A stretch of DNA of 64,000 nt, taken from NCBI GenBank assembly GCA_027459505.1, contig DAIDIE010000021.1:16803-80802 (forward strand). The letters are read 5' to 3'. The translations under genes were made by a program, and so were the position numbers. This DNA is from Acidobacteriota bacterium (GTDB taxonomy: Bacteria; Acidobacteriota; Terriglobia; Terriglobales; SCQP01). Under the pieces are notes generated by a model. The model did no database searches and was not told the DNA's origin. It was given only the letters and a program-made list of their open reading frames with translations. Below, piece after piece: positions 3,529 to 64,000 of this stretch (position 1 is its first letter; each line of letters opens with the position of its first letter).

Positions 3529-5013
3529 TTAGCGCTGGTTATCGGAACGGGGTTCGGGGTGAATCGTGACCCGTGAGAGTTCCGGGAGGGCGCGCTTCAG
3601 CTCGGCTTCAATGGTGGTCAGAATCTCGTGCACGCGGGCAACTTCCATCTGATCCGGCAGACTGCAGTGAAACGAGAGGGCCAAATGGCCAGCGCTGCGC
3701 CGTAACTGGTAATCATGCGCGTCCAGCACCCCCGGCTGATGACGCGTTATGCGCTCGGCGATTTTCTTGAGCCGCTCGGTTTCTACCAGGTCCGCTGCGG
3801 GAATCGCGCCAAACTCCGGCTCAATGTGGGTAATGATGTGGGAGATCTGCGGCAGTTCGCGTTTGATTTCGGCCTCGATGGCGCTCACCCAATCATGGGC
3901 CTGCTTCAGGCTGAGGTGCTCTTCGACCTCAACGTGCAACTCCACGTTGAGTTCCCCCGCGAGATCATAAATCGACAGGTCATGCACGGAAACATTGGAG
4001 CGCTGCGCGATGGCGCGAATGCTCTCAAACAGATTGAGGGTGGGCGGCTGCCCAGGGCGGGTATCCACCACCACGTCCGCTGAGGGCGCTTCCAATTGAA
4101 TCCGGCGCATCACCTCGTCGCGCACCTGGTGGGCGCGCTCCAGGGTCAGCGTGCGCTGCACGGCCAATTGCAAGTCGACGAAGTAGCGGCTTCCGGAGCG
4201 CCGCAGACGCAGGCGCTCGACCTGCAACACGCCGGGAACGGTTGCCGCCAATGAGCGAAGCGTTTCCAATAGCGAAACCGGCGCTTCATCCAGCAAGGCC
4301 CCGGCGGTGCGGCGGGCCAGCCGGACCGCCAACAAGGTCATAAAAACCGCGACTGCGCATGCGGCTATGGCGTCCGCATGGCGCAGTTCCCAAATGTGCA
4401 GGGCGGGCGCGGCGGCCACCAGGGCCAGACCACAGAGCACCGCGACGCTGCTCCACAAATCGCTGGAGAAGTTGAGGGCGTCGGCGGCCAGCGCATCACT
4501 ATCCAACTCGCGCGCGGCACGGCCTAGAAAACGGCTGCGCCAGCCGTCGATGCCGATCGACAGCAACAAAACGGCAAATGCGGCGGCGCTGGGCTCAACC
4601 ACTGCGGCGGCACGGTTCCAGTTCAAAGCCGCTGTCACCACAATCACGGCAGCGGTCAGCAGCAGCAATCCAGTCTGTAAAAAAGCGGAAAAATTCTCGA
4701 ATTTGCCGTGGCCGAAAGGATGGTTTTCGTCCGCAGGTCGCGCCGCCACTTTGACCGAAAACCAGGTCAGCAGCGAAGCAAACAAATCCAGGCCCGAGTG
4801 CGCCGCCTCCGCTAAGAGTCCCAGGCTGTGTGTCGCCAGCGCCACAATCAGCTTGACGCACAACAGCAGGATCGTTAGCAAAAGCGAATAGAGCGCCACC
4901 TGGGACTTGCGCCCGGAGGCCGGAACTACTGCCGTCATCGGGTTGGTGGCTCCCATGGTCAGAAGTGCAGTCCCACGACCATCATACAGAGGCGGGGCTT
5001 GGGGGCTTTTCAT
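3529..5013 (-). CDS. cation diffusion facilitator (CDF) family metal efflux transporter with three tandem C-terminal cytoplasmic domains
   Basis: CDF TM signature HSGLDLFASLL...ADENHPFGHGKFENFSAF. Three successive ZT_dimer-like repeats each end in ...HxEP / DTRP. The start was chosen at the internal Met (MKSPQ); the ORF extends to 5166. Confidence 0.8.
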   Translation of the reverse strand: MKSPQAPPLYDGRGTALLTMGATNPMTAVVPASGRKSQVALYSLLLTILLLCVKLIVALATHSLGLLAEAAHSGLDLFASLLTWFSVKVAARPADENHPFGHGKFENFSAFLQTGLLLLTAAVIVVTAALNWNRAAAVVEPSAAAFAVLLLSIGIDGWRSRFLGRAARELDSDALAADALNFSSDLWSSVAVLCGLALVAAAPALHIWELRHADAIAACAVAVFMTLLAVRLARRTAGALLDEAPVSLLETLRSLAATVPGVLQVERLRLRRSGSRYFVDLQLAVQRTLTLERAHQVRDEVMRRIQLEAPSADVVVDTRPGQPPTLNLFESIRAIAQRSNVSVHDLSIYDLAGELNVELHVEVEEHLSLKQAHDWVSAIEAEIKRELPQISHIITHIEPEFGAIPAADLVETERLKKIAERITRHQPGVLDAHDYQLRRSAGHLALSFHCSLPDQMEVARVHEILTTIEAELKRALPELSRVTIHPEPRSDNQR

Positions 5014-5246
5014 ATAAGCGGCCTCCCGGACGGCAGCCGCCTCGCTGCCATTGTGCTCAAAAAGCAACTCCGGCTGCCACCCTCTCCCCCTGCGCTCCCT
5101 CTCCATGAACTGTAAAGCACTTCCTGACAACAGGTTGTGCAGGGGCCGGCGTATGGCCGTTGACACTCCGGTGGGGCTCAGCGAAAATATACTTTCTTGT
5201 CCAGATTCCCGGAGAAGAGCATTTCACCCCCAAGGGGAAGCCAGGC

Positions 5247-9047: not shown

Positions 9048-10190
9048 ATGCCCCTAATCGATCTGCAGGACGTCCGGCGCGCCTACCCCAGCCAAGGTGG
9101 GGATGTGGCCGCCTTGGACGGCATTTCACTGACCGTGGAAAAAGGCGAGTGGCTGGCCATCATGGGCCCCTCCGGGTCCGGCAAGACCACGCTGGTCAAC
9201 CTGATTGGCTGTCTCGACCGGCCCACCTCGGGCGCGCTGCTGATCGATGGAACCGACCTCGCCACGCTTTCACGGCGTGAGCTGACGCGCTTCCGCGCCG
9301 ACAAGATCGGATTCGTCTTCCAGCAGTTTCACCTGATTCCCTACCTCACCGCGGTGGAGAACGTCATGCTGGCGCAGCACTTCCACAGCATGTCGGACGA
9401 AAACGAGGCGCGGGACGCGCTCATCCGCGTCGGTCTGGAACATCGCCTGCATCATCTCCCGGCCCAACTCTCGGGTGGCGAGCAGCAGCGCGTTTCCATC
9501 GCGCGCGCCCTGATCAATGATCCCGCCATCATCCTTGCTGACGAGCCCACCGGCAACCTGGACGAGGCCAACGAAGGGCGGGTCATGGACTTGCTGCGCC
9601 ATGCGCACGAGGCCGGCAAGACGATTGTCATGGTCACCCACGACCCCACGATCGCCCGGCTGGCGGACCGTTGCATACAGCTTCACCATGGCCGCATCAG
9701 CGAAATCAGCATCTTCAGCAACCTGGAAGACGAAGAGTACGACGAGATCCTGGAGCAGCTCTGGATTATGCGGGAAAACGATGTCCCTCTCACCCAGGAA
9801 CACATCAACGTGCATGGCCCCATCCCGCTGGACCGCGCCTTACCCGGCATGCTGCGGCTGGGACTGTTGACACAAAAGGGGTCGCGTTTCGTTTTCACCG
9901 GCGTTGGCGAGCGGCGGGCCAGCGATATTGTGCGCCGGCACCGGCTTGCGGAGTTGCTGTTTTCCGAAACACTGCAACTGCGCGACGAGGCTGAACTGGA
10001 GGCACAGGCCTGCAAGTTCGAACACATCCTCAGCCCCGAAGCCACCACCCGTATCTGCACGTTCCTGGGCCACCCCGCCGCCTGTCCACACGGCAGCCCT
10101 ATTCCGCGGGGTGAATGCTGCCTGGCGGCCAACGGCGAGCGCGAAAAGAGCAGTTTGCTTTCCGCGCAGGACCTGGGCGCCAGAAGCTGA
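9048..10190 (+). CDS. ABC transporter ATP-binding protein fused to a DtxR-like metal-sensing domain
   Basis: Walker A GPSGSGKTT, signature LSGGEQQR, Walker B ILADEPTGNLD. The C-terminal roughly 150 aa then read EILEQLWIMRE...RRHRLAELLF...FEHILSPE...FLGHPAACPHGSPIP, as in DtxR/IdeR family proteins. Confidence 0.85.
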   Translation: MPLIDLQDVRRAYPSQGGDVAALDGISLTVEKGEWLAIMGPSGSGKTTLVNLIGCLDRPTSGALLIDGTDLATLSRRELTRFRADKIGFVFQQFHLIPYLTAVENVMLAQHFHSMSDENEARDALIRVGLEHRLHHLPAQLSGGEQQRVSIARALINDPAIILADEPTGNLDEANEGRVMDLLRHAHEAGKTIVMVTHDPTIARLADRCIQLHHGRISEISIFSNLEDEEYDEILEQLWIMRENDVPLTQEHINVHGPIPLDRALPGMLRLGLLTQKGSRFVFTGVGERRASDIVRRHRLAELLFSETLQLRDEAELEAQACKFEHILSPEATTRICTFLGHPAACPHGSPIPRGECCLAANGEREKSSLLSAQDLGARS

Positions 10191-20598: not shown

Positions 20599-21336
20599 AT
20601 GCAACATGACCTCGCCCGTTTTGACCGCCGATATTTTGAGGATCCCGACTACCCAGCCGGATTGAAGGGGGGAGACGAGGTTCAGGGCTACGGTTACTAC
20701 CCGGAATACTTCCCGATCGTGCAGGCGCAGCTGTCGTCCCTTGTCGAATTGCTGGAGTCTGGCCGGCTGCTCGATGCCGGCTGCGGAAAAGGTGCGTTGG
20801 CCGCCTACGCTCGCCGGGACCTGCACACTCCAACCGTAGGGCTGGACGGCAGTGCCCACGCCCTGGGCTTTGCTCGCCGCCACTTCGGCGGCGCGGACTC
20901 GGTGTTGGGTGATATCAGCCGCCTCCCGTTTCCCTCGGATCTGTTTGACCTGTGCTGGAGCAATGGCGTTCTGCAGTACCTCTCCGCCGATCAGGCGGGG
21001 GCGGCGTTACGCGAGCTGGCGCGCGTGACGCGACGCGCCGCTTTTATCTCCAATATCGCCGCCGCCCACCGCTACGGCGAATGGGGCCAACATGATCACC
21101 TGACGCGCCTTTATCTTCGCCCGGCGCAATGGGAAGGCTTCGCACGCGCACAGGGATTGGACGCGGTGGCCCTTCCCTTTGAAGGCGAGTCGGCCATCCT
21201 GATCCTGAAAGACGCACCGCGCAGCTTGCCTCTGCGTTTTGTCGAGCTCAGCCTGGAGCGCATGAAACGCCTGGGAGCCCTGCAGCGCACGCCACCGCCG
21301 CTCGATGGGTTCTACCGCAAGATGCAGCGGCGATAG
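20599..21336 (+). CDS. class I SAM-dependent methyltransferase
   Basis: Motif I LLDAGCGKGALA and a downstream LFDLCWSNGVLQYL. Confidence 0.8.
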   Translation: MQHDLARFDRRYFEDPDYPAGLKGGDEVQGYGYYPEYFPIVQAQLSSLVELLESGRLLDAGCGKGALAAYARRDLHTPTVGLDGSAHALGFARRHFGGADSVLGDISRLPFPSDLFDLCWSNGVLQYLSADQAGAALRELARVTRRAAFISNIAAAHRYGEWGQHDHLTRLYLRPAQWEGFARAQGLDAVALPFEGESAILILKDAPRSLPLRFVELSLERMKRLGALQRTPPPLDGFYRKMQRR

Positions 21337-21450
21337 GGGCGGCTTATCGGGGTTTTGGCCGCGAGCCAGACTTCGCAGTGGGCGGCGGTCAGATTCGCCG
21401 CAGAAGAAATGCATCGTTCATGAAACCCGCGCAGGCAGTATACTGTTTGC

Positions 21451-21535
21451 AATCTCTACTGCCCGAATTACCCAACGTTTTACAAGGCGGAGGCCACCAA
21501 CGTTTTGCTGAGTTGGCTCCGCCTGTTTCATTTAT
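21451..21535 (+). ncRNA. candidate small RNA (promoter-like TTCATG-16nt-TATACT at 21417-21444; hairpin plus U-rich tail 21486-21535)
   Basis: Sigma70-like boxes with a 16-nt spacer. Imperfect 9-bp GC stem GGCGGAG(G)CC/GGCTCCGCC followed by TGTTTCATTTAT. CCAACGTTTT occurs twice (21472-21481 and 21497-21506, the second inside the hairpin loop). Confidence 0.3.
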
Positions 21536-21673
21536 CGCCGAAAGCACATTGCTCACAGCATCATTTTGCGGCTGACTCGATTGCGGCCATGCACTCCGCT
21601 CAAAAGAATGCGGGCGACCCGCCGGAGTCTTGCGACTCTGGTGTTCGCCCGCACGTTCAGCACTGAATTGGGG

Positions 21674-21960
21674 GCGGCACGGCCGCTTTTATTCCACGCG
21701 CTTCGGTGTCCGGCCGAAGCAGACGGATGGTGGCCGCGCTTTACTAGCCCGAGTTCGTCACACAACGGGACGTCTGCGATCGAGCGGCATGCGGCTTTTC
21801 CTGTTGAGAAAAGCCGCACTCTTCTCCGCTCCAACGACTCGCCTGGTGACGAACCCGGGCGTCGCCAGCGGTGCGTGACCTAAACGGCAACCCCGGACCT
21901 TCGCGACGACTTCGGCCTGCGATTTCGAACTCGAAAGCAGTTCGACTCGGCCCTGGCTCG
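21674..21960 (+). repeat. structured intergenic repeat, copy A (about 174-nt element interrupted by a 113-nt insertion)
   Basis: Shares GCGGCACGGCCGCTTTTATTCCAC...GCTTCGG..CCGAAGC...GGCAACCCCGGACC...CTTCGGCCTGCGATTTCGAACTCGAAAGCAGTTCGACTCGGCCCTGGCTCG with copies B-E. Confidence 0.9.
21748..21860 (+). mobile_element. MITE-like insertion nested in repeat copy A
   Basis: Absent from copies B-E at the same point (…CTTTACTAG|TCGCCAGCGG…). Terminal inverted repeats CCCGAGTTCGTCAC (21748-21761) and GTGACGAACCCGGG (21846-21859) match 13/14. Internal perfect 10-bp hairpin GCGGCTTTTC-ctgttga-GAAAAGCCGC (21791-21817). Confidence 0.6.
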
Positions 21961-22004: not shown

Positions 22005-22724
22005 CTAGAAGGTAAACACGATTCCGGCCGAAGGCTGGGTAACGTGCGCCCAACCGGTAGTCGCCAGACTCGGGAGGTTGAAATTGGGCGGGCGATAGTT
22101 CAACTCCCGTACCTGGAAACGCAGTCCCACGTTGGCAATGCGGAAATCCAGGCCCGCACCGTAGTCCCACATCGCCTTCCATTGCGCACTGGCGCCTGGG
22201 ACGTTGGTGGTGCTGCTGGTGGGGCGGAAGTCGAGGCCGCCACCACCACCCAGAACAAAGGGTTGCAAGCCGAAGAAGCTGGGCGTATTGAAGACCAGGT
22301 TTCCACTGACCTCGTGCATGTTCGCCTGAACCGAAGCTGGTCCCAAATTGGTGACATATCCGTGGGAATTGCGCGTGAACCCATAATTGCCCTCGATCGC
22401 CCACCACTTCGTAAAGTGATAACGATCGTTGACGAGCAGGCCTGCCGAGTTCGTCACAAAGTGACTGGCAAAGCTCCCACTGGGATTGGTATCACCGGTG
22501 AAGATGCCGCTGATTTGAAAAGAGAGATCGTTCTTGGGGGCGTCGGAAGCTCCCGGACTCCCCGCCGAGCCGGGACCGGGGCTGCTGCTGGGCTGATCCT
22601 GAGCAAAGGCCGCGAAGGCGCTAAGAAAGACAACGACCAAAAGAGCAACAAATTTAGGGTATTGACGTCTCACGGGAATGACCCTCCATGTGGTTTCAGG
22701 AAGAGTTCTCTTGCTTGTCTTCAC
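22005..22724 (-). CDS. outer-membrane beta-barrel protein (OmpA/OmpW-like porin family)
   Basis: Signal peptide ...FVALLVVVFLSAFAAFAQD, alternating beta-strand pattern, and a C-terminal ...AGIVFTF with terminal Phe. A GTG at 22673 is an alternative start. Confidence 0.7.
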   Translation of the reverse strand: MKTSKRTLPETTWRVIPVRRQYPKFVALLVVVFLSAFAAFAQDQPSSSPGPGSAGSPGASDAPKNDLSFQISGIFTGDTNPSGSFASHFVTNSAGLLVNDRYHFTKWWAIEGNYGFTRNSHGYVTNLGPASVQANMHEVSGNLVFNTPSFFGLQPFVLGGGGGLDFRPTSSTTNVPGASAQWKAMWDYGAGLDFRIANVGLRFQVRELNYRPPNFNLPSLATTGWAHVTQPSAGIVFTF

Positions 22725-25298: not shown

Positions 25299-25313
25299 AA
25301 CCCTCCACCAAAG

Positions 25314-25350
25314 GAAAGGGCGGCCGGAGTCCCGGCCGCCCTTTCCTTTT
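25314..25350 (+). terminator. intrinsic terminator of the GH31 gene
   Basis: Perfect 14-bp stem GAAAGGGCGGCCGG / CCGGCCGCCCTTTC with a 4-nt loop, followed by CTTTTCCCTT. Confidence 0.7.
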
Positions 25351-25361
25351 CCCTTGAACAA

Positions 25362-25530
25362 GCGGCACGGCCGCTTTTATTTCACTGCTTCGTCGTCCGA
25401 CCGAAGCTGACGGATGGCCACGCATTCCTAGTCGCCAGCGGTGCGGGACCTGAACGGCAACCCCGGACCTTAGCTACGACTTCGGCCTGCGATCTCGAAC
25501 TCGAAATCAGTTCGACTCGGCCCTGGCCCG
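25362..25530 (+). repeat. structured intergenic repeat, copy B
   Basis: Full-length copy. Its 3' end lies 6 nt from the convergent smc stop codon. Confidence 0.9.
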
Positions 25531-25536
25531 CAGTGC

Positions 25537-28500
25537 TTACGCGCTGGCGCGTTCAGACTTGCCTTCCATGTTTACCGATACCAGGCGGCTCACGCCTGCC
25601 TGCTGCATCGTCACGCCATAGAGCAGCGGCGCGATCTCCATGGTGCGTTTGTTGTGGGTGATGATGATGAATTGCGTCTGCTCGCTCATCTTCCGCACCA
25701 TCGCCGAGAAGCGGCTGACGTTGGCCTCGTCAAGCGGAGCATCCACCTCGTCCAGCACGCAGAAAGGACTCGGCTGGTACTGGAACACCGAGAGCAACAG
25801 CGCCATCGCGGTCATGGCCTTTTCTCCGCCCGAGAGCAGCAGAGCGTTCTGCAGCTTCTTGCCGGGCGGCTGGGCCACGATGTCCACGCCACTTTCCGGA
25901 TCGTTCTCCGCGTCGGTGAGTTTCAGGAAGCCCTGCCCGCCCCCGAAGAGCACCTTGAACGACTCCTGGAAGTAGGCGTTGATCTTTTCGAAGGCCTCGT
26001 TGAACTGCTGGCGCGAGATCTGATCGATTTCCTGAATGGCTTTCTGGGTGTCGGCGATGGAGTCGAGCAGATCCTTGCGCTGTGTCTCCAGAAATTGATG
26101 CCGCGTTTGGGTTTCCTGGTATTCCTCCAGCGCCATCATATTGACCGGCCCGAGGTGCTCGATCTTCGTCCGGATGGCGCGCGCCGCCTGTTCAAGATCG
26201 GCCATCTCCTCGGCGGCGGCGCGCACAATGGTCTCGTCCGCCTGTAGTTCCGTAATCTCAATATTGAGCTCGTTCCGGCACGTTTCCGTAACGTGTTCCG
26301 CATCCGCCTGCAGACGAGCCAACGCAACCTCCAGTTCACTGAACCGGTCGCGCAGAGCGTTCACCGCATCCCGCGCGGCCTTGACGCCGGCCTCCAATTC
26401 CGCGGCGCGCGCCCGCGCCTCCACGCGCTCCTGTTCCAGCGCCTGCCGTTGCTGCTCGGCCTCGTCGCGCCGCAGCCGGAGTTGCTGGACTTTTTCACCG
26501 AGTTCGCCCGAAGAGCTCAGCAGCTGTTCGCGCTGCTGGTTCGCCCGCTCCAGATCGCTGTGGATCTGGTTGGAGCGGTTCAGCAAATCGCGCTGCTGAT
26601 GTTCCAGGCGCTGGAAAGCCTCCTGCGCGCCCCGCGACCGTTCCTCCAGCATCGCCAGCCGTGACTGTGCTTCGGCGACCCGCTGGACCGCCTGATCGCG
26701 CCGCAGCCGCACCTCGGCAATATCGGCGTTGATTTGAATCTCTTCCGCTTCCGCCGCCGCCTTATCCTGTTCGGCTTGCTGGCGCTGCGCTTGCAGCGAC
26801 TCCAGACGATTCATACCCTGGGTACGCTCGGCGCGGCCGCGTTCCAGCTCCACGGTGTGCAGACGGAGCCGCTCCTGCAGGCGGCGTACCTCGTTTTCCA
26901 GTTGCTTCAGTCCCTGCCCGCTGGTAAGGATCTGCTTGTCGAGCTCATGCCGGCGCGCGCGCAAGCGGTCCAAGTCATGCTGGGTTACCTGCAGTTCCTG
27001 CGCGATGCCGGAGAGCTGGGTTTCGATCCGCTGAATGGTTTCGCTGACCTCACCCTCCCGGCGGCCCAGTTCGCGCAGTTCCCGCTTCAGGGTGAGCGGT
27101 CCCGCCCCGGAATGGGTGCCGCCACTCACGGTGTGGTTATGGAAGCACTCGCCGCCGGCGGTGAGGAAAAAGGCCTGTGGATTCTGCGTGGCCATCTGCC
27201 GGGCCACTGCCGGGTCGGGAACGATATAGCCGCTGCCCAGCTTGGGCAGCAGATGCTCCAGCGACTTGCCAAAGCCGTTCAGCACGCGCACACAGCTCTT
27301 CAAGGGAATGGGGTTGGGGCTTTCGGGAATGCCCTGACTTTCCAGGTGCTGGGGCAGGTCGAACATCTTATATTGCCCGTCCTGGGGATGCACCAGGAAG
27401 GTGGCACGGCCCTGCACGTCGGTTTGCAGCACGCCCAGTCCGGACTGGGCATCGTTCCAGTCGTGCACCACGACGTAGTTCAATTCGTCCCGCAGAAACT
27501 CTTCCACCACCGCTTCATACGAGCCTTCCACTTCCAGGAAGTCGGCCAGCACACCCATGGCATGGAACTTGTCCTTCGCGGCGCCGGAAGCAAACAGTTT
27601 CTTCACCGCCTCGGTGCTGTAACCATGATGGGCAACGATCTGCTCGATAGAGCGGCGGCGGCCGACGATTTCCGACAGTTCGGCGCGGGCGGCGTCGAGT
27701 TGTTTGCGGCTCACCGCCTCGTTCTGGCGCAGCTCGGAAACGCGGCGCTCGAGCTTACCAATCTCCTGCACGACCTGCTCGAGTTCTTCGCGCTGCCCCT
27801 GAAACTCGAGATCGAGTTGGCCGCGGCGCACGCCCAAAGCGTCCAGCTCCTGATCGGCGGTTTGTTTTTCCTGGTCGAGCCGGGCCAGTTGGCGCTCCAG
27901 GTTGGCAATCACGGTTTCGGCCTGCACCACCTGATTGCCGAACGAAGAAATCTGGCCGAGGAGGCCAAGGACGCGGCGCCGCGCCTGATCGGCTTTCTGT
28001 TCCAGCTCTCGGGCGGCGCGGCTCTCGTTTTCGCCGGCGGCACGCTGTTCCTGATAAGCGGCGCGCGCGGCTTGCGCTTCGGCCAGCACCGCGGTCCGCG
28101 CCTCCTCGGCGCTTTTCAGCTCCTGCTGCGCGGCTGCGCGCTGTTCGGCGAGGCGGCTCAGCTCCTCTTCAAAGCCGCGGGTGCGGTTTTCCAACTCCCG
28201 GGCCTGCTCGCTATTGAACACAATCTGGCGCTCGGCGCGGTCCAGTTCCATCGCCAGCTTGCCGGAATCTTCCGTGAGCTGCCGCAGCTCCTGCTCCACC
28301 TGGCTGGCGCGCTGAAACCACTCCGCACGCGTGGCCTCAGCCTGGTCCAGCCCGGTCTGCGCCGCTTCCAGTGCCGCGCGATCTTGCTCGTGCTCGGCCG
28401 AAACACGCGTGTGCTGTTCCTGCAACGCGTCCGCCTTGCTGGCGAACAACCGGCGCAGATGCTGATCGCTCTCCGCCTTCAACTCCGCGTAGCGCTGGGC

Positions 28501-35546: not shown

Positions 35547-37217
35547 GTGCCCAGTCCCGATAACAACGGAAACAACCTTCGCGGCAAAAGCGTGAACGGC
35601 GCCACTCCGGTGCCTCAGGAGCGTGCCCTCCGCTTCACTACCTGGGGAGAACTGCGCCAGACGCCCGGCTTTGACCTGCAGCGGCTCAAGCAACGGCGGG
35701 TGAAAGACGAGATGCGCGAGAACCTCCTGCGCCTGCTGCGCAGCGGCGAAACTATTTTTCCTGGTATTGTGGGCTACGACGACACGGTCCTTCCGCAGGT
35801 CATCAACGCCATTCTTTCGCGGCATAACTTCATCCTGCTGGGATTGCGCGGACAGGCTAAGACCCGCCTGCTACGTAGCCTGACGCGCCTGCTTGATGCG
35901 GAAATGCCAGCGGTGGCCGGTTGCGAGATCCGCGACAACCCCGCCGCTCCCCTCTGCGCCCGCTGCCGGGCGTTGCTTGCCAAGCAGGGCGATGACACGC
36001 CCATCGTCATGATTCCCGCCCCGCAGCGCTACATCGAGAAACTTGCCACTCCAGACGTGACCATCGCCGATCTCATTGGCGACATCGACCCCATCAAAGC
36101 GGCCCGCGGCGGCCACGACCTGGCCAGCGAACTCACCATTCATTACGGGTTACTGCCCCGCGCCCATCGCGGCATCTTCGCCGTTAACGAACTGCCCGAC
36201 CTGGCCGGAAAAATCCAGGTGGGCTTATTCAATATCATGCAGGAGGGAGACGTACAGATTAAAGGCTATCCGGTGCGCCTGCCTCTCGATCTGGCACTGG
36301 TTTTCAGCGCCAACCCGGAGGACTACACCGCCCGCGGCAAAATCGTGACTCCACTGAAGGACCGCATTGGCAGCGAGATCCGTACCCACTACCCGGCCAG
36401 CATCGAAGAGGGCATGGCGATCACACTGCAGGAGTCGGAACTGGAACGCGGTGGCGCTCCGGTTGTATTACCTGATTTTGTCCGGGAGGTTATTGAAGCG
36501 GTTGCTTTCTGTGCCCGCGAGGACAAACGCGTTGACCAGCGCTCTGGCGTAAGCCAACGGCTGGCCATTAGCTGCCTGGAGAACACCGTCTCCAACGCCG
36601 AACGGCGCGCCTTGCTGAGTGGCGACGATCCGGCGGTGCCGCGCCTGCTGGATGTGCACAGTTCCCTGCCCGCTCTCACCGGCAAGATTGAGCTGGAGTA
36701 TGAGGGCGAAATGAAAGGGGCGGAAGTGATTGCCCGCGACCTCATCCGCGCCGCCACCGCGAGGGTTTTCAACCGCATATTCACGCTGCAGCCCGCCGAG
36801 CCCACGACAACTCCGGTTGAAGAGTGGGAGAGTTACAGCGGCATGCGGCGCGCCGCCTCCGCCAACACGCGCGATAGCCGCTCGCGCATTCCTCTGCCCG
36901 AGGGCCTTGAACAGGTAGTGCAGTGGTTTGACCTGGGCGGCACGTTGGATCTGGCGGAAGCGGTGCCCGCCCACAAGCTACTGCCGGCCCTGCAACAGAT
37001 CAATGGGCTGGAGCGGCAACTCAAAGTCCTCGGGGTGAAGAACTCCGACCCCGCCGGGGTCAAAGTTGCCGCGGCGGAGTTCATCCTGGAAGGATTGTGG
37101 GCGCATAAGCGCATCAGCCGCAAGGTCGGCGTCGGCTACCACTCCGAACCAACGCGCCGGGAGGCGGCAACCGCACGCAACGAGAACCCCGGCCGCAATC
37201 GCCGGCCGCTGAACTAG
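35547..37217 (+). CDS. ChlI/MoxR-like AAA+ ATPase with variant Walker A
   Basis: GIVGYDD..., P-loop GLRGQAKT (Ala where the canonical second Gly sits), Walker B-like IFAVNELPDL. Paired with the downstream VWA gene. Confidence 0.8.
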   Translation: MPSPDNNGNNLRGKSVNGATPVPQERALRFTTWGELRQTPGFDLQRLKQRRVKDEMRENLLRLLRSGETIFPGIVGYDDTVLPQVINAILSRHNFILLGLRGQAKTRLLRSLTRLLDAEMPAVAGCEIRDNPAAPLCARCRALLAKQGDDTPIVMIPAPQRYIEKLATPDVTIADLIGDIDPIKAARGGHDLASELTIHYGLLPRAHRGIFAVNELPDLAGKIQVGLFNIMQEGDVQIKGYPVRLPLDLALVFSANPEDYTARGKIVTPLKDRIGSEIRTHYPASIEEGMAITLQESELERGGAPVVLPDFVREVIEAVAFCAREDKRVDQRSGVSQRLAISCLENTVSNAERRALLSGDDPAVPRLLDVHSSLPALTGKIELEYEGEMKGAEVIARDLIRAATARVFNRIFTLQPAEPTTTPVEEWESYSGMRRAASANTRDSRSRIPLPEGLEQVVQWFDLGGTLDLAEAVPAHKLLPALQQINGLERQLKVLGVKNSDPAGVKVAAAEFILEGLWAHKRISRKVGVGYHSEPTRREAATARNENPGRNRRPLN

Positions 37218-37387
37218 CGGCACGGCCGCTTTTATTCCACTGCTTCGTCGTCCGGCCGAAGCCGACGGGTGGTGGCCGCGCTTTACAAGTGGCCAGCGGT
37301 GCGGGACCTAACGGCAACCCCGGACGTTGGCTATTACTTCGGCCTGCGATCTCGAACTCGAAAACAGTTCGAGTCGGCCCTGGCTCG
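37217..37387 (+). repeat. structured intergenic repeat, copy C
   Basis: Fills the whole AAA+/VWA spacer. Its first G is the G of the AAA+ gene's TAG stop, and its 3' end lies 10 nt before the VWA ATG. Confidence 0.9.
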
Positions 37388-38666: not shown

Positions 38667-38836
38667 GCGGCGCGTCGGTGCAGCGTGGGGCCGCCATTCC
38701 AACAGACAGCGCAATGTTTGTGAACCCGGGAGAATTCGTGGCCCTGCAGCGGCTTAAAGGAGCAGCAGCAGCAGCGTCGTTTGCCGTTGCTGGGTGGGAT
38801 CCCCTCCCGAATCGATGGAGTCGATGGCTTACCGCG

Positions 38837-39220
38837 CTAGTAGAGCTGCAGGGTGGTTAACCGCGCGATCCGTTCGAAATCCCGATCCAAAGACAATTGC
38901 GTCGCGCCCGCGTCGATAGCGACTTCCGCAATAAGGGCATCCGTCGTGGAAAGGGTCACTCCCCTGACGCGAGCTCAGCAGTAAACTTCCGCGGCGTGAC
39001 GGTAGGCCTCAAAGCCGCCAGGCTCCAAAAGCGGCCAGGACCGAAGCTGTGCCTCGACCTCCTCAACGCCGCCACGGAGTCCTTGCACAATTTCGGCAAC
39101 AACGATTCCGGTGATTGCCAGAGGGGCACGCTGAGAGAGCAAACGTTCCAGTTCGCGACACGTTGCGGAACTGAACGAGCCAAAGAAGTCAATCCAAACG
39201 GACGTATCCACCAGAATCAA
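38837..39220 (-). pseudogene. vapC: PIN-domain toxin vapC interrupted by an in-frame TGA (38975-38977)
   Basis: N-terminal MILVDTSVWIDFF. After the TGA the same frame continues ARVRGVTLSTTDALIAEVAIDAGATQLSLDRDFERI, the conserved PIN C-terminal half with two acidic catalytic residues. Confidence 0.7.
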
Positions 39221-39417
39221 AAGCGGTTCCCGCGCATTTTCTTGAGATCGCCTTTCCAGATGCGGCTTCCACGAAATCGCAATATCCCCTTGCGTTCTTC
39301 AGCTTGGATGAGTTGTTGAAGCGTCTGCTCGACGATCTCGCGCTTGGCCTGCAAGCCGGTCAGCTCTCGTGCACGTGCGATGAGCTCATCACGTAAAAAT
39401 ATGTTAGTGCGGCCCAT
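39217..39417 (-). CDS. vapB: VapB-type antitoxin (DUF2191 / RHH-like)
   Basis: MGRTNIFLRDELIARARELTG..KREIVEQTL. Overlaps the vapC start by 4 nt. Confidence 0.75.
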   Translation of the reverse strand: MGRTNIFLRDELIARARELTGLQAKREIVEQTLQQLIQAEERKGILRFRGSRIWKGDLKKMRGNRF

Positions 39418-39796
39418 AGGCCCACGATACACCATTTCTACAGAGCTCTGGTGTATTCAGGGTTCAACCGTCCGAGCAGCGGGGCGCGAAAGGCGGAAGC
39501 GCCGCTTGGCGTGCTTCCGCTGTGGAGTGCGGCCCACGCCCGTCCCAACTAAGCAGACGGCTTTGATGAGCGACCCGGGAGACTTCCGCGGCCCTTCAAC
39601 TGCGATGCGCCCCAGCAGCAGACTATGCCTCCTGGGATTAAGCTTGAGTGGCTCCTTCGAGCTGCGTGCCCGAACCCTTATTTTTGAAGGGTGTTACGGC
39701 GAGACGACCTGAGCGGAAAGATTTCAACCGCCACGGTGGCGATCGCGCCGTTGAGCGTGAACTAGGAAGAAGCCAGAGGCTGCTATAGTTGTGGGC

Positions 39797-41365: not shown

Positions 41366-41681
41366 GTAGCGATAATACCCGGAGCAGCCTCATGAAGGCT
41401 GCGTCTCCCGTTAGAGACAGGGGAGCAGGCGGCCTGCTGTTCCGGCTGGTCCTCCGAAGCATGGAAGGGGCTGCTGCCTATTACCGTGCACATCGCCGGC
41501 AACAAAACGTTGTTGATTAAACTCCGGATCAGGAAGCCCACTAAGAGCCTGACGGTGCCGATCCCATCAGCTGCGAAGAAGGCGGTCGCGAACGAGTACG
41601 AGGAGATGCTGGTACACGTTCGACAGGCAAAGCATTAGCGGGAGCAGCGCTCAAACCGCGGTATCAGTTGGCCTGCAACAG

Positions 41682-42170
41682 CTAGTGCGGGATGGGGCCA
41701 ACGTTTGGCCAGTTGGCGCCGGCGGCGCCGGCCAATTGCGCCGCCAACAGCGAATCAATGACGAGACTGCCAAGCTCCGGATCTCCAAATTGAACTCTGA
41801 CTCCCGGAAACATTGACAGTTCTTCCATAACGGAGAGTTGACTCCATGGAACCAAAAAGCTCTTAGCAAATGGCCCAAAAACACGTAAAACGCCCAAACG
41901 CAAACCGGACGGACACACACTCACAGTGAGCACACCGTTCATGTTTGCGGCGGGACCCATGCGCCCACAAATAAATCGCAGGTGCAGAATGGGTGGCTCC
42001 GCTCGATCTGGAAAGGCCGCCATTAGCCGAAACCAGCCACAGGAGAGCAAAATCAGGGAGGTAACCAGAAGCCATATGGCCACGATTCCCAGCACAGCGA
42101 TGGAGACAACATCGAGCTTTGCCACGCTAAGGCCCTCCCGAGGCATATTAATACAAATAGCGGGGCACAT
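41682..42170 (-). CDS. hypothetical membrane protein
   Basis: ORF in an AT-richer patch with a TM hairpin (VVSIAVLGIVAIWLLVTSLILLSCGWF). No recognised family. Confidence 0.4.
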   Translation of the reverse strand: MCPAICINMPREGLSVAKLDVVSIAVLGIVAIWLLVTSLILLSCGWFRLMAAFPDRAEPPILHLRFICGRMGPAANMNGVLTVSVCPSGLRLGVLRVFGPFAKSFLVPWSQLSVMEELSMFPGVRVQFGDPELGSLVIDSLLAAQLAGAAGANWPNVGPIPH

Positions 42171-42500
42171 CGCAGCTCAGAGCGAGCCATTCAAAAGACG
42201 TAGGGCTCTCTGCCGCTTTCCACGTGCGCGAGGCAAGGCCTCGTCTCCTGAGCCGCCCGCTGGCATTGCTTTCCGTTGGGTCGCTGGCGCTCCTGCTGAC
42301 GGGCTCTTGTGTGACGGTCACACTTCCCCAGTCACTCCCTTAAGGGTATAGGGGGCCGCCCTTCCCACCCCAACAAAGCAAACTGCGCTTTGTTGGGGGC
42401 GCTTTCGCGGCCTTCCACTGGCGATCTCCTCCGGCGATCTCTCCCAAAGCGAGGACTCGGTGGCTCGCTCCTCAGGAGAGGCACCGCTTCCGCGATCATC

Positions 42501-44931: not shown

Positions 44932-45104
44932 GCGGCACGGCCGCTTTTATTCCACCCGCTTCGGTGTCCGGCCGGAGCTCACGGATGGTGGCCGCGCTTT
45001 ACTGGTCGCCAGCGGCGCGGGACCTAAACGGCAACCCCGAACCTTTGGTATCACTTCGGCCTGCGATTTCGAACTCGAAAGCAGTTCGACTCGGCTCTGG
45101 CTCG
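44932..45104 (+). repeat. structured intergenic repeat, copy D
   Basis: Full-length copy between two minus-strand genes. Its 3' end lies 6 nt from the GT4 stop. Confidence 0.9.
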
Positions 45105-50195: not shown

Positions 50196-50366
50196 AGGCT
50201 CTTTTGGCCGAGTCTAACACACTGGCCCAAGAGACAGCGCTTACGCGCTGCCCCGGAAGGGCACGCTGCGATTGCGGAATAGCAGCGGCGGCTCAAGCCA
50301 GCTCAGGAATCTTCCCCGACCTGCGGTAGCATCGCTATGCGGGCATTCGCGCCGCCGCCCCTCGCC

Positions 50367-50828
50367 ATGAGCCAGGAATTCAAGATCATTGCCGAAAATC
50401 GTCAGGCCGCGCACAACTACCACCTGCTGGAAAAGTATGAAGCCGGGGTGGTGTTGAGCGGCACCGAGGTGAAATCGTTGCGGGCCGGACAAGCGCAGCT
50501 CAAGGACAGCTACGCCATTGTGCGCAACAACGAGATCTTCCTGCTCAACTGCCATATCAGTCCCTACCACAACGCCGGCTACGCCACCCATGAGCCGGAC
50601 CGCACGCGCAAGTTGCTCATGCACGCGCAGGAGATTCACCGCCTGGACGGCAAGACGCGCGAGAAGGGCCTCACGCTGATACCCACGCGGCTCTACTTTA
50701 AAGATGGGCGGGTGAAGTGCGAGATCGCGCTGGCCAAGGGCAAGCAGCTTTACGACAAGCGGGAAACGGAGCGGAGGCGCGAGGCCGACCGGGAAGCGCG
50801 CCAGGCGCTGAAGCAGCGTAGCCGGTAG
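50367..50828 (+). CDS. smpB: SsrA-binding protein SmpB
   Basis: IAENRQA.HNY...E.YEAG.VL.GTEVKSLR...L.DSYA; the full SmpB signature. Confidence 0.9.
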   Translation: MSQEFKIIAENRQAAHNYHLLEKYEAGVVLSGTEVKSLRAGQAQLKDSYAIVRNNEIFLLNCHISPYHNAGYATHEPDRTRKLLMHAQEIHRLDGKTREKGLTLIPTRLYFKDGRVKCEIALAKGKQLYDKRETERRREADREARQALKQRSR

Positions 50829-58441: not shown

Positions 58442-58553
58442 GCGGCACGGCCGCTTTTATTCCACCGCGGACCTAAACGGCAACCCCGGACCTTCGCTAC
58501 GGCTTCGGCCTGCGATTTCAAACTCGAAAGCAGTTCGACTCGGCCCTGGCTCG
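58442..58553 (+). repeat. structured intergenic repeat, copy E (central module deleted)
   Basis: Starts right after the TGA of the 91-aa ORF. Has the 5' hairpin module and the 3' module but lacks the roughly 60-nt GCTTCGG...CCGAAGC...TCGCCAGCGG module. Confidence 0.9.
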
Positions 58554-58750: not shown

Positions 58751-60070
58751 TCAGGCGCCAGAGGCGCGGGCAGCGACGGGGCTTTCCGCAGCTTGCGAAA
58801 GCGCCGCAGCGACGCCATCGCGGGCCGAGGATACAGCCTCGCCTGCTTCCGCGGGCGCGCCGGGGATGTCCAGCGAGCCGGTATTCGCCTCGCTGACACA
58901 GGCGGAAGCGCCTTCAGCGGAGATGGATTCCCCGGACGTTGCCTGCGCCTGGACCGGGCCCTTTTCTCCTGCCTCCGGGACTGGCTGGGGAGGCACGGCC
59001 TCGTCTCCTTCAGGCCGCCCGCTCCCGTTGGTCGCTGGCACGTTCTCCAGTGAGACCGTGAAGCCGCCGAGGCTGGGCTCCTCCCCCGCGCGAGGGGACC
59101 GCCCTGCGGAATTTCGCGGCCCTCCACCTGCGATCTCCTCCCGCAGGGAGGACTCGGTGGCTCGCTCCTCTGGAGCTTCCTCAGACTCTGCCGGCCGCTG
59201 CCCGGCATCTTGTTGGGCTTGCAGGTTGGCGTGAAGCCTTGTCACTTCCTCGGCAAGCTCCTCTGCTTCCAAACGCAACTCTTCCTCCGTGCTGGGCGGA
59301 GGCGTGGCGTTGGGGGAGCAAGCGGCCCGGGCGGCGGCGCGACGGGCCTGCATGGCCGGATGGGAAGGCATGGCCGCGCCACAGATAAAGCGGAGCAGGC
59401 TCTGCTCGTTGCGCTCGAAAGCCAGTCCATTCAGGATGAGCATGGCGTAGGGCTGCATGGAGACCAGGTGATCCAATGCCTTGCGCGACAGCCAATAGCG
59501 AAAAGCCTCGCATTGGAGCCAGCGGTAGAAGGTTGAGCGAGGGATGCCGGCCTGCGCAAGAATCTGGCGCAGGTTGGGGAAGTTGCCGTTCACCAGTTCG
59601 GGGTCGCGCAAGGCCGCGAAGAAGCGCAGTTGCGCGGCGCTGGGAGTGAAGGGTCCGGCAGTGGCGGCGGGCTCGGGTTCGGGCCCGCCGGCGTCGGAAG
59701 CTGAACGCTTCGATTTATCACTGGAGCCGTTGGCTGAGGATGAAGGGCGGGCGGGCCCGTTGGCTTGCGCCTTGGAGTCAGGGGCGGCTTCAGCACCCGC
59801 CGCAGCAGCGATGGCGGCCATGGCGGGATTGCACATGGCCGACAAGGTGGCAGCCTGGGCGGCAGTCTTCTCCAGCCTTTCCGCGGCTTCCATAAACTCC
59901 GCCTTGGCGCGGCCTTCGGCGGTTTCGGCACGCTGCGCACAGGTGGCAGCGAGAAACTTGGTGTACTGCAGCAGCCCAGCGCCGGGGCGCATCTGTTGTG
60001 CGGGCTTGTTGCTGGGTGGGTTGGGTTTGTTTGGCTGATAGTGCTTCTTGCGCTTACGAGACTTTGGCAT
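58751..60070 (-). CDS. hypothetical low-complexity protein with central HTH-like segment
   Basis: Basic N-terminus (MPKSRKRKKHYQPNKPNPP), Ala/Pro/Glu-rich regions, and QAGIPRSTFYRWLQ, which resembles HTH motifs of transposase/terminase-small-subunit-like proteins. Confidence 0.6.
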   Translation of the reverse strand: MPKSRKRKKHYQPNKPNPPSNKPAQQMRPGAGLLQYTKFLAATCAQRAETAEGRAKAEFMEAAERLEKTAAQAATLSAMCNPAMAAIAAAAGAEAAPDSKAQANGPARPSSSANGSSDKSKRSASDAGGPEPEPAATAGPFTPSAAQLRFFAALRDPELVNGNFPNLRQILAQAGIPRSTFYRWLQCEAFRYWLSRKALDHLVSMQPYAMLILNGLAFERNEQSLLRFICGAAMPSHPAMQARRAAARAACSPNATPPPSTEEELRLEAEELAEEVTRLHANLQAQQDAGQRPAESEEAPEERATESSLREEIAGGGPRNSAGRSPRAGEEPSLGGFTVSLENVPATNGSGRPEGDEAVPPQPVPEAGEKGPVQAQATSGESISAEGASACVSEANTGSLDIPGAPAEAGEAVSSARDGVAAALSQAAESPVAARASGA

Positions 60071-62148: not shown

Positions 62149-62437
62149 TGTGGATATTGTCGTCGAAGTGTGGCAACGCGTTTGGTCACCAAGTGCAGGT
62201 TAACAGTTATCTCGCGGGAGGCTGCTGATCGTTCCGCTTCGCCGTCCACTGGGCACGGCTACACTAGACTACAGACCGCGAGCGCCCGAATGCGGCACAG
62301 CCGCCTTTTTCCCACTTGCGCCAGTGTCCCGATCCTACGGTAGCGGGAGCCGACGCCCAGGAAGCTGCCGGAGATGGTTGCAACGGCGCCTGCGGAGCTC
62401 GAAAGCAGTTGGGTTCGCCCCTTGAGGAGAATGCCTT

Positions 62438-64000
62438 TTGCCGCTCTTCCTGTCGCTGATTCTGCATGCGCACCAGCCGGTGGGCAATTTTGACCACGTC
62501 ATTGAAGAGGCCTACCAGACCTCCTACCTGCCGTTTGTGGAGGAAGCGGAGCGGCGCCCGTGGCTGCACTTCACCCTGCACTTCAGCGGTTCGCTGCTGG
62601 CCTGGATCGCCGAACGCCATGCGGGCTATATCGAGCGGCTCCGGGTGCTGGTTCAGCAAGGGCGGCTGGAGGTGCTGGGTGGCGGCTATTACGAGCCCAT
62701 TCTGGTCTCGATTCCCGACCGCGACAAGATCGAGCAGATTCAGCGGCTGAGCCAATTGCTCGAGAAGCTGTTCCAGACACGGCCGCGCGGCATCTGGCTC
62801 ACCGAGCGGGTTTGGGAACCGGAGCTGCCGGCGCCACTGCACCGCGCCGGAGTGGATTTTGCCATCATCGATGACACCCACTTCATCCTGGCCGGCCTGG
62901 AGCCGGAGCAGACCTATGGCTATCTGATCACCGAACACGGTGGCAGTCCGCTGCGCGTGGTCCCTTCGAACAAGTTTCTGCGTTGCACCATGCCCTTCCG
63001 GCCGGAGCAGGAGTCACTGGCGTTCCTGCGCGAACAGGCGCAACGCCATCCCGGGGCGCTGCTGACCATGGGTGACGACATGGAAAAGTTTGGAACATGG
63101 CCGCACACCTTTCAGCACGTTTACAAGGATGGGTGGCTGCGCCGCTTCTTCGATCAACTGGAGCAGGAGCAGGAAGTCATTGAGACCACCACGCTGGCGC
63201 AATATCTTGACCAGCATGCGCCGCTAGGGCTGGTTTATTTGCCAACCGCCTCCTACGCCGAGATGATGCAATGGGCGCTGCCGGCGCCGGCGGCGGCGCA
63301 GTTTCACCGGGCGTTGCATGACCCGGCGTCGGAACCCTACCGCCGTTTTCTGAGTGGGGCGCCGTGGCGCAGCTTTCTGGCCAAGTATGGCGAAGCCAAC
63401 CTGATGCACAAGACGGCGCTGGACGTGAGCGCGCGGCTGCATCAGCTTCAACCCGGCGCCGGGTGGGAGCGGGACTTCGCCGCCGCCTACGACGATCTGA
63501 TGGCGGCACAATGCAACGACGCCTATTGGCACGGCCTATTTGGCGGACTGTACGCGCCGCACCTGCGGGACACGGTCTACACGCGCCTGATCGCCGCCGA
63601 CCGGAAGCTGGACGAACTGGCGGGTAATGGGCGGCATATACGCCGTCTGGACCTCAACCTGGATGGGGTAGAGGAGGTGGAGCTGCGGACGCCGGGGGCG
63701 CGCGTTCTGGTGGTACCGGCGGATGGGGGCACGGCGGCGGCCATTGATGACCGGCGGCATGCGGCAGCTCTGGTGAATTCGCTGCAACGGCGGCCGGAGG
63801 TGTACCACGAAGATATCCGGCAAAAGGTGGCCTCCAACCCGGCCAACCTGCCGGGCACGCAACTGCACGATCACGAAAACCTGCAAAAAGCGTTGTGCTA
63901 TGACCGCTATGCACGCGTTTGCGGGCGGCTGTACCTCATGCCCGCGGAAGCGGCCTGGGAACAGTTTGAAAAAAACGAACTGGGTGAAAACGCGGAAGCG
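62438..64000 (+). CDS. glycoside hydrolase family 57 (alpha-amylase/4-alpha-glucanotransferase-like), 3'-partial
   Basis: Not in the ORF track because no stop falls in the window. TTG 62438 follows GAGGAG and an in-frame TGA at 62423. Translation reads LFLSLILHAHQPVGNF...FTLHFSGSLLAWI...YYEPIL...WLTERVWEP...MGDDMEKFG, as in GH57. Confidence 0.85.
   Translation, partial: MPLFLSLILHAHQPVGNFDHVIEEAYQTSYLPFVEEAERRPWLHFTLHFSGSLLAWIAERHAGYIERLRVLVQQGRLEVLGGGYYEPILVSIPDRDKIEQIQRLSQLLEKLFQTRPRGIWLTERVWEPELPAPLHRAGVDFAIIDDTHFILAGLEPEQTYGYLITEHGGSPLRVVPSNKFLRCTMPFRPEQESLAFLREQAQRHPGALLTMGDDMEKFGTWPHTFQHVYKDGWLRRFFDQLEQEQEVIETTTLAQYLDQHAPLGLVYLPTASYAEMMQWALPAPAAAQFHRALHDPASEPYRRFLSGAPWRSFLAKYGEANLMHKTALDVSARLHQLQPGAGWERDFAAAYDDLMAAQCNDAYWHGLFGGLYAPHLRDTVYTRLIAADRKLDELAGNGRHIRRLDLNLDGVEEVELRTPGARVLVVPADGGTAAAIDDRRHAAALVNSLQRRPEVYHEDIRQKVASNPANLPGTQLHDHENLQKALCYDRYARVCGRLYLMPAEAAWEQFEKNELGENAEA

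Follow-up and report, generated by a model that had tools for sequence, protein, structure and literature searches.

A lineage-specific ~170-bp interspersed repeat at gene 3′ ends in an uncultured Terriglobales-like acidobacterium, probably spread as non-autonomous mobile DNA

Introduction

What is a sequence of about 170 nucleotides (nt) that recurs on one strand of a bacterial chromosome, in most cases pressed against the end of a gene? The question is raised by a 64,000-nt stretch of acidobacterial DNA (positions 16,803–80,802 of contig DAIDIE010000021.1; Acidobacteriota, Terriglobia, Terriglobales), to which we refer as the window. An earlier reading of the letters alone (hereafter, the sequence-only reading) described five similar copies of this element. 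It proposed that they were either mobile DNA resembling REP sequences or transposable elements of the miniature inverted-repeat type (MITEs), or a family of cis-acting RNAs that terminate or stabilize transcripts, and it preferred decaying mobile DNA.

Small interspersed repeats are routine in bacteria and poorly catalogued, and almost nothing is recorded of them for uncultured Terriglobia. Here we describe the repeat, its ends, its derivatives, its spread over several contigs and the contexts in which it has inserted. We think it most likely that the copies are the remains of a non-autonomous mobile element, multiplied across the chromosome of a single uncultured, Terriglobales-like soil acidobacterium. 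We consider it likely that the family is a lineage-specific, non-autonomous interspersed DNA repeat of ~170 bp that was spread by a trans-acting mechanism and survives mostly at gene 3′ ends. The family is previously undescribed and belongs to no named family; small bacterial interspersed repeats as a kind have long been known.

Results

A dispersed repeat with fixed ends

Coordinates are positions in the window, and copies are named A to F in window order (Table 1). Direct-repeat search, multiple alignment and pattern scans recovered five full-quality copies, A–E, all on the + strand and where the sequence-only reading had placed them. We built a family profile, a nucleotide hidden Markov model, from the trimmed copies (alignment A3) and searched it with nhmmer. 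Copies A–E matched the profile with E values of 1.8e-57 to 3.6e-27. Three sub-patterns of the element each matched exactly these five sites, with no match in shuffled sequence. Pairwise identity among A–E was 87.0–96.4%, and 33 of 173 alignment columns were variable. The initial count of five was nonetheless short by one, as the profile search revealed an additional, decayed copy, F, also on the + strand (E = 0.004). A repeat finder recovered F independently as a sixth 28-nt match with 82% identity.

The multiple alignment delimits a common unit at whose borders the flanks diverge sharply. Its ends are fixed, with (A)GCGGCACGGCCGC on the left and GGCCCTGGCTCG on the right, and the flanks differ between copies. 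The unit consists of three modules, which agree with their first description. Module 1 is GCGGC-ACG-GCCGC followed by TTTTATT and is identical in A–E. Module 2 is the hairpin GCTTCGG/CCGAAGC, in which D has one G-U pair and B and C are each short of one pair. Module 3 is a TTCGAA-rich palindrome between the direct repeats CGACTTCGGCC and CGACTCGGCC (the CGACT(T)CGGCC repeats) and runs to the terminal GGCCCTGGCTCG. In the decayed copy F, module 1 is GCGGC-ACA-GCCGC followed by CTTTTT, and module 3 is reduced to GCCTGCG..GAGCTCGAAAGCAGTT.

The unit length of ~170 nt that was first reported holds for B, C and D. Copy A owes its greater length to a nested 114-nt palindromic segment that separates modules 2 and 3, and copy E is shorter because 60 nt that include module 2 are deleted. 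Besides this deletion, the long form and the decayed copy F, the derivatives of the unit include one 5′-truncated or diverged copy. The copies also fall into subfamilies, B/C and A/D/E: B and C have TGCTTCGTCG and a C in the palindrome, and A, D and E have the alternatives. Such subfamilies, together with deletion, long and decayed derivatives, form a pattern of master-copy proliferation that conservation in place would not give. No frame is open across all copies, and indels shift the frame; we dropped a protein-coding element as a candidate because stops and frame-shifting indels vary between copies.

The segment nested in copy A has 15-bp terminal inverted repeats, GCCCGAGTTCGTCAC and GTGACGAACCCGGGC, with one mismatch. 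It folds into one long hairpin (−58.5 kcal/mol) with an inner 10-bp hairpin, GCGGCTTTTC/GAAAAGCCGC, and no duplication flanks it in copy A. The long form, main element plus nested segment, occurs in at least three places: copy A and the loci of two predicted proteins, P0122 and P0272, described below. In these three places the segment was always combined with the main element and never seen alone. It could be a nested MITE that spread along with its host element; alternatively, the long form may have come first and given rise to the 170-nt form by a precise deletion. The long-form subfamily has itself multiplied, to at least three copies.

Copies on other contigs

From translations of every open frame of the element we assembled six-frame chimeric peptide queries and ran them against a collection of 5.8 billion proteins, seeking ORFs (open reading frames) that had been called across copies. 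A search of predicted proteins sees only copies embedded in ORFs and says nothing on a preference for in-frame insertion. The query from the main element matched P0121 (E = 1.6e-23) and P0122 (E = 1.7e-6), and a second such query, with the nested segment, matched P0272 (E = 9.8e-6). P0121, P0122 and P0272 are single-member, NCBI-only clusters on contigs of 183,785, 37,287 and 222,987 nt. P0121 contains a complete canonical copy (RHGRFYST...SSSTRPWL). P0122 contains the long form, and its sequence (MRLFLLKKAALFSVPATRLVTNSGVASGAGPKRQPRT...) matches copy A through the nested segment. P0272 lacks a recognizable module 1; it spans the nested segment, flanked by the end of module 2 and by module 3, and contains a frame shift.

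The family therefore numbers at least nine copies on at least four contigs, six in the window and at least three elsewhere. The sequence-only reading had noted that confinement to the window would indicate a local duplication; copies on at least three further contigs speak otherwise. We found no match to the exact module 3 pattern in 185,579 species genomes or in JGI metagenomes, and no match to the element in plasmid and phage collections. The module 1 20-mer matched metagenomes only within recA coding sequence (GGTAAFID), which we dismissed as chance. An nhmmer search of 88 loci fetched from relatives found none with the element. The nearest SMC among the 185,579 species-representative genomes was 53% identical (closest loci ~47–53%), with the best matches in metagenome-assembled genomes of Terriglobales/Acidobacteriaceae. 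The window's GH31 protein had a match of 100% identity in just one NCBI entry, on a 160,876-nt contig; its next-best relatives were 77% identical and not syntenic. As far as these collections tell, the family is lineage-specific, with no similar sequence among public genomes, metagenomes, plasmids or phages.

Traces of insertion

P0121 is a CapD-like protein with a Polysacc_synt_2 domain over residues 49–328. Its homologues (35–48% identical) have nothing at the position of the 57 residues that the element encodes, and the next 31 residues of P0121 align to the C-terminal tail that is conserved in the protein family (L..L..a..GD......LL...vP). When the element was removed from P0121, a profile of 149 homologues aligned through the tail with a score of 382.2 bits, compared with 372.6 bits without the tail and 373.3–376.0 bits with 20 shuffled tails. 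Because the tail alignment is regained once the element is deleted, and because the homologues lack the element-encoded residues, the P0121 copy is by this comparison an in-frame insertion of 57 codons (~171–174 nt) in the linker before the tail, absent from the 149 homologues.

Copy C provides a second trace. Deleting it in silico restores ...CTG AAC TA + C TGA GGC GAC ATG, with an in-frame TGA that overlaps a GAGG Shine-Dalgarno sequence 10 nt before the ATG of the VWA gene. Copy C thus has the look of having split a tight operon junction. Copy B is seated between a native bidirectional terminator and the smc stop codon. This terminator-like hairpin, GGAAAGGGCGGCCGG-AGTC-CCGGCCGCCCTTTCC, has a folding energy of −34.8 kcal/mol (z = −6.6), and an A-rich stretch and a T-run flank it. 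Probably it serves both GH31 and smc as a bidirectional terminator, which copy B now parts from smc.

Placement at gene ends

The window is an ordinary acidobacterial chromosome segment of ~62% GC, with smc, lpxA/lpxI/fabZ-type genes, smpB, glycoside hydrolases, a secretin and transporters. Its GC skew is weak and changes sign near 44 kb. Copies A, B and E lie between convergent genes, C between two + strand genes, and D and F between two − strand genes. Convergent and co-directional gaps thus hold three copies each, and divergent gaps hold none. In five of the six copies, one end is ~6 nt or less from a stop codon. The 3′ end of B is exactly 6 nt from the smc stop codon, and that of D exactly as far from the GT4 stop codon. 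C shares the first G of the element with the upstream TAG stop, the ATG of the VWA gene follows 10 nt past the end of C, and E directly abuts the TGA stop of a 91-amino-acid + strand ORF. These distances and stop-codon overlaps at B, C, D and E agree with the sequence-only reading. Its broader statement that all copies abut gene ends stands for one end of five copies and fails elsewhere: A is 337 nt and 44 nt from the neighboring genes, B lies behind the GH31 terminator, and to the left of D is the 121-nt upstream region of a − strand gene.

Table 1. Coordinates, structure and immediate neighbors of the repeat copies in the window
Feature	Coordinates	Strand	Size	Structure and setting
Copy A, long form	21674–21960	+	287 nt	modules 1–2, 21674–21746; nested segment, 21747–21860; module 3, 21861–21960
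Copy A neighbors				methyltransferase gene (+) ends at 21336; outer-membrane protein (OMP) beta-barrel gene (−), stop at 22005; convergent
Copy B	25362–25530	+	169 nt	between GH31 terminator (25313–25346) and smc stop codon (25537–25539)
Copy C	37217–37387	+	171 nt	between two + strand genes; VWA gene downstream
Copy D, reference for module coordinates	44932–45104	+	173 nt	module 1, 44932–44951; module 2 hairpin, 44958–44978; module 3, 45020–45104
Copy D, alternative module 3 hairpin TCGAACT/AGTTCGA	45069–45089
Copy D neighbors				both − strand; GT4 stop at 45111; GDE start at 44810; D antisense to both
Copy E	58442–58553	+	112 nt	60-nt internal deletion including module 2
Copy F, decayed	62292–62422	+		overlaps 3′ tail of − strand ORF 62264–62938

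Like D, copy F is antisense to both neighbors. The last ~55 codons of ORF 62264–62938 (62264–62428, − strand) run antisense through F, and their GC content at the three codon positions, 0.60/0.73/0.62, is non-coding-like compared with 0.81/0.36/0.70 upstream. Either the annotated end of this ORF is an artefact, or the insertion replaced its tail.

Copies that are all direct repeats in one orientation within the window might also be recombination (att-type) sites or leftovers of local segmental duplications. We regard this as the least probable of the explanations considered here. The flanks are unrelated beyond chance; core genes (smc, the lpx cluster, smpB) lie between the copies, without an integrase; the copies differ by 4–13% and form subfamilies; and further copies are found on other contigs and inside a gene. 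Wider homology of the flanks was examined and rejected. The left flanks of B, C and D have a hairpin-like stretch that contains CCGGCCGC, and the right flanks of B and D have TTACGC..GCTGGC.CG, each with p ~0.02–0.05 before correction for 20 comparisons. The latter was taken as chance because the SMC tail is of normal length relative to its homologues. A group IIC intron fragment positioned after a terminator, the end of an IS110 bridge RNA and an integron attC site were likewise dropped because there was no Rfam intron hit, no strong structure and no adjacent recombinase, and core genes lie between the copies.

Two features beside the copies deserve mention in their own right. Between the methyltransferase gene and copy A, 337 nt (21337–21673) lack a convincing ORF and contain several hairpins, among them GGCGGAGGCCACCAACGTTTTGCTGAGTTGGCTCCGCC followed by a T-rich run; this interval gave no Rfam hit above noise. 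At 197 nt from copy E, ORF 58751–60070 (− strand, 439 amino acids) encodes an Ala/Pro/Glu-rich sequence with codon-position GC of 0.69/0.59/0.73. It has no significant Pfam hit and gave sub-threshold matches to transposase-type helix-turn-helix domains near ‘GIPRSTFYRWL’ (HTH_Tnp_1_2, E = 0.028); it is doubtful as a gene.

Folding, covariation and termination

A selected RNA could also account for a conserved intergenic unit with hairpins. On either strand, whole copies had minimum free energies with z scores of +0.1 to −1.7 relative to dinucleotide shuffles. As single hairpins, modules 1 (z = −2.6) and 2 (z = −3.4) exceeded shuffles and module 3 did not (z = −1.2). The term ‘structured’ in the sequence-only reading thus suits the hairpins of modules 1 and 2, whereas the elements as wholes fold in an ordinary way.

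Substitutions in stems, seen in the alignment of the five copies, yield non-standard pairs. We found no compensatory change in any predicted or hand-drawn helix and no pair altered on both sides, a result of low power with five sequences. The module 3 helix CTGC..TTTCGA/TCGAAA..GCAG has five broken cells, spread over three pairs and uncompensated, in agreement with the earlier statement that substitutions there are not compensatory. The variation is better accommodated by an alternative hairpin, TCGAACT/AGTTCGA, in which a single cell is broken; the better fit may just reflect where substitutions fell. RNAalifold pairs the 3′ arm of module 1 with GGTGGCCGC, which would make a terminator/antiterminator switch, a candidate we rejected since the partner is mutated in B and deleted in E.

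A search of the whole window against Rfam 15 at gathering thresholds gave no hits, so the element matches no described Rfam family, a comparison that had been proposed at the outset. E-value scans of copy D and the copy A region reached at most 18.5 bits, against thresholds of 49–168, which is noise; the matches to Six3os1, Pseudomon-groES, isrG and MIR1437 among them were discarded as far below threshold. The lack of an Rfam match and of covariation and the ordinary folding of whole copies argue against a conserved RNA. Because compensatory base changes are missing and whole copies fold no better than shuffles, we do not take the element for one.

The strongest form of an RNA explanation holds that each copy is a selected cis-acting module, in which module 1 terminates upstream + strand transcripts and the hairpins, read on either strand, stabilize flanking mRNA 3′ ends, as E. 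coli REP sequences do. A simple intrinsic-terminator pattern, (A)GCGGC-ACG-GCCGC(T) followed by TTTTATT, is present at module 1 in every copy and invariant in five, and the placement near stop codons and between convergent genes would suit this role. Pneumococcal SPRITE repeats have been proposed to be co-opted terminators (PMC3049150). A pattern scan called module 1 in B, C and D, on a high background (26 sites in the window compared with 20.2 ± 5.3 in shuffles), and its stem is weak (−8.8 kcal/mol). At B, module 1 is redundant beside a native terminator of −34.8 kcal/mol. Both genes beside D, and both beside F, run antisense to the copy, and on the reverse strand the hairpin is not followed by a T-run. 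C, in a 10-nt operon junction, is read in the sense direction; termination there would be damaging to a downstream gene that was probably co-transcribed. A terminator at the 5′ end would also leave modules 2 and 3 untranscribed, and E lacks module 2 altogether. Given the weak stem, the redundancy in B, the antisense position of D and F and the setting of C, module 1 is unlikely to be an efficient terminator, and efficient termination is an improbable reason for the family to exist. A selected cis-acting RNA is accordingly an unlikely account of the family, and what remains of it is a possible side effect of individual copies.

A second RNA explanation, a multicopy gene family in which each copy is an independently transcribed, trans-acting small RNA, would fit the length of ~170 nt, the intergenic location, the single orientation and the hairpins. 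We found no sigma-70-like promoter in or adjoining the copies scanned; the terminator-like hairpin is at the 5′ rather than the 3′ end, with no terminator on the reverse strand; and one copy is within coding sequence (P0121). Together with the lack of an Rfam match, of covariation and of unusual folding energy, these observations make a small RNA family highly improbable.

Comparison with known repeats

At 112–287 nt, non-coding and multicopy, the copies have the size and number of MITEs. A classical MITE or REP/REPIN origin would make the element either a deletion derivative of an insertion sequence (IS) with a DDE transposase, bounded by terminal inverted repeats and target duplications, or a palindrome mobilized by a RAYT. 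Intergenic placement also fits, RAYT-like TIRYT transposases and TIR repeat families are found in cultured Acidobacteria (PMC3733652), and the segment nested in copy A resembles a TIR-type palindromic element. The main element, however, has neither terminal inverted repeats nor a target-site duplication. Its palindromes do not end in a GTAG or CGTC tag, and inverted pairs do not occur, the six window copies all having one orientation. We consider such an origin very unlikely. ‘REP/MITE-like’, the label first attached to the family, is apt in a loose sense only: the element departs from MITEs in its ends and from REPs in lacking a 20–40-nt tagged palindrome and inverted pairs.

REP, BIME and REPIN sequences are similar in being intergenic and downstream of genes, in convergent and co-directional gaps, in forming hairpins without target duplication and in their presumed mobilization in trans by RAYT (PMC3733652). 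They differ in that REPs are 20–40-nt imperfect palindromes with a GTAG or CGTC tag and common inverted pairs (PMC3733652), whereas the present unit is 170 nt long, untagged and in one orientation.

The closest relative in concept would be the pneumococcal SPRITE; the likeness is one of functional analogy, and our element has no sequence relationship to SPRITE, BOX or RPE. SPRITEs are shorter than 200 bp and lineage-restricted, have a terminator-like hairpin with a T-rich tract and are enriched between convergent genes and near the 3′ ends of coding sequences (PMC3049150, PMC10969869). They have no convincing terminal inverted repeats, a target duplication could not be demonstrated, and neither a transposase nor a matching IS has been identified for them (PMC3049150). 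Our family likewise is a dispersed, lineage-restricted unit with a terminator-like hairpin, at gene 3′ ends and in convergent gaps, and it too has neither inverted ends nor target duplications. The nesting in copy A recalls the insertion of pneumococcal repeats into each other (PMC3049150, PMC10969869), and the distribution of SPRITE, BOX and RUP repeats has been read as a sign of mobile parasitic DNA (PMC3049150). There are differences. SPRITEs are AT-rich and dominated by an 18-bp duplex, whereas here a 5′ hairpin of 5–6 bp is followed by ~150 nt of other conserved sequence, and SPRITEs lie ~63% on the leading strand, following gene strand bias, whereas here six of six copies are on one strand.

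BOX elements of S. pneumoniae (boxA-boxB-boxC) offer a parallel for the loss of an internal module (copy E) or expansion of the unit (long form) with the terminal modules kept. BOX differs in having terminal inverted repeats and target duplications (PMC3049150). Rickettsia palindromic elements (RPEs) are ~150-bp repeats found in frame within genes, where they keep the ORF and add a peptide (PMC10969869), as in P0121. RPEs are palindromic and frequent in genes; the present element is not palindromic overall, and its one intragenic case comes from a method biased to such cases.

The IS200/IS605-derived PATEs share several features with our family. PATEs have no terminal inverted repeats or target duplication and carry hairpins near their ends, and the left-end hairpin of IS200 doubles as a terminator. 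Strand-biased orientation is expected of PATEs from insertion into the single-stranded lagging-strand template. RAYTs are Y1 transposases related to IS200/IS605. In our element, by contrast, the left and right hairpins are unrelated, as the stems of the three modules differ (GCGGC/GCCGC; GCTTCGG/CCGAAGC; TCGAACT/AGTTCGA or TTTCGA/TCGAAA), whereas one TnpA would be expected to act on related subterminal hairpins. The 10–20 nt outside the left hairpin are not conserved, and a constant 4–5-nt target at the left end is not evident in the few flanks compared, seven in all. At 0–5 nt upstream of module 1, copies A, B, C and F have TGAA(Y) or GAAY (TGA in E), and D and the P0121 copy do not; the motif may mark a target preference or a ragged end of the element. 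Correia/NEMIS elements of Neisseria, ~100–160 bp long, are similar in size and in their placement near gene ends, where they can alter transcription and mRNA processing. They have 26-bp terminal inverted repeats and a TA duplication, both of which are lacking here.

Discussion

The lack of an Rfam match and of compensatory changes, the copies on further contigs, the in-frame insertion within a gene and the proliferating long form all favor decaying mobile or dispersed DNA over a constrained non-coding RNA, which was also the preference of the sequence-only reading. Within this interpretation, mobilization would occur in trans, by an enzyme encoded elsewhere in the genome, and copies would persist mainly at gene 3′ ends because insertion is tolerated there, with purifying selection acting on location. 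The 5′ hairpin and its T-run could stop read-through from upstream + strand genes as a by-product or as insulation, a role put forward for other elements.

Several observations weigh against the mobile-DNA interpretation. An inverted-repeat search of copies C and D with their flanks found no terminal pair; by eye, the element ends match at nine of 14 positions, which is unremarkable in DNA of 62% GC. The target-site duplications that might have been expected did not materialize: no copy has a k-mer of 5 nt or more common to its 20-nt flanks, and 4-mers common to flank pairs are at chance level, with 71% of random flank pairs having one. The genes of the 64-kb window include no transposase, integrase or Y1 transposase; a sub-threshold DEDD_Tnp_IS110 match (19 bits) in a BcrAD/BadFG ATPase gene was dismissed as a fold-level false positive. 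All six window copies are on one strand despite the differing orientation of their neighbors (two-sided p ~0.03), which non-autonomous mobile DNA as such does not explain. The invariance of module 1 in five copies could reflect selection (p ~0.02, uncorrected and for a segment chosen afterwards). The source lineage is poorly represented, with no close relative genome in the collections; the three other contigs very probably belong to the same genome as the window; and support from empty sites consists of homologues that are 35–48% identical and a single reconstructed junction.

Taken with the missing terminal inverted repeats and target duplications, the uniform orientation is a hint of strand-specific movement. 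Speculatively, a single-strand HUH-type, rolling-circle or site-specific recombinase might have moved the element, rather than a cut-and-paste DDE transposase; we rate this as doubtful at best, and perhaps as unlikely. A bolder version, also unlikely, would make the element the non-autonomous form of a type of strand-specific transposon undescribed in Acidobacteriota: one without inverted ends or target duplication, in a single orientation relative to replication, placed at extreme gene 3′ ends, with a portable terminator-like leading hairpin, and moved in trans by an HUH-type or other recombinase. Nothing about the family beyond its uniform orientation and its missing inverted ends and target duplications could lift it above the routine. 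Should the orientation prove uniform genome-wide and track the replichores, a single-strand transposition system in the phylum would be indicated; if not, the family is one more lineage-specific repeat.

Whichever applies, the repeat causes errors of annotation: the public protein set contains three ORFs, spurious or extended, that derive from it. It also marks insertions, such as the apparently split operon junction at copy C and the lengthened CapD-like protein, and it offers a compact case for studying the movement of repeats that have neither inverted ends nor target duplications.

Other features of the window

A second, unrelated repeat pair on the + strand (42230–42478 and 58990–59175) consists of collinear patches of 30–54 nt with 87–90% identity, one of which is hairpin-like (CTCC..GCGAGGACTCGGTGGCTCGC..GGAG). 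One copy lies just downstream of the stop of the GDE gene (− strand), and the other within the doubtful ORF 58751–60070. Two intervals of ~1.1 kb each, 38667–39790 and 41366–42500, contain only short ORFs without Pfam matches. The cumulative GC skew has its minimum near 40–44 kb.

Although smpB is at 50337–50828, ARAGORN found no transfer-messenger RNA or tRNA gene in the 64 kb. The gene at 3529–5166 encodes a cation-efflux (CDF) protein with three ZT_dimer matches, an unusual repetition of the cytoplasmic dimerization domain. The gene at 9048–10190 joins an ABC-transporter ATPase domain to Fe_dep_repr_C, the C-terminal metal-binding domain of an iron-dependent repressor; it is preceded by two permease genes of the FtsX/MacB type and by one for an FTR1/FtrD-like iron permease.

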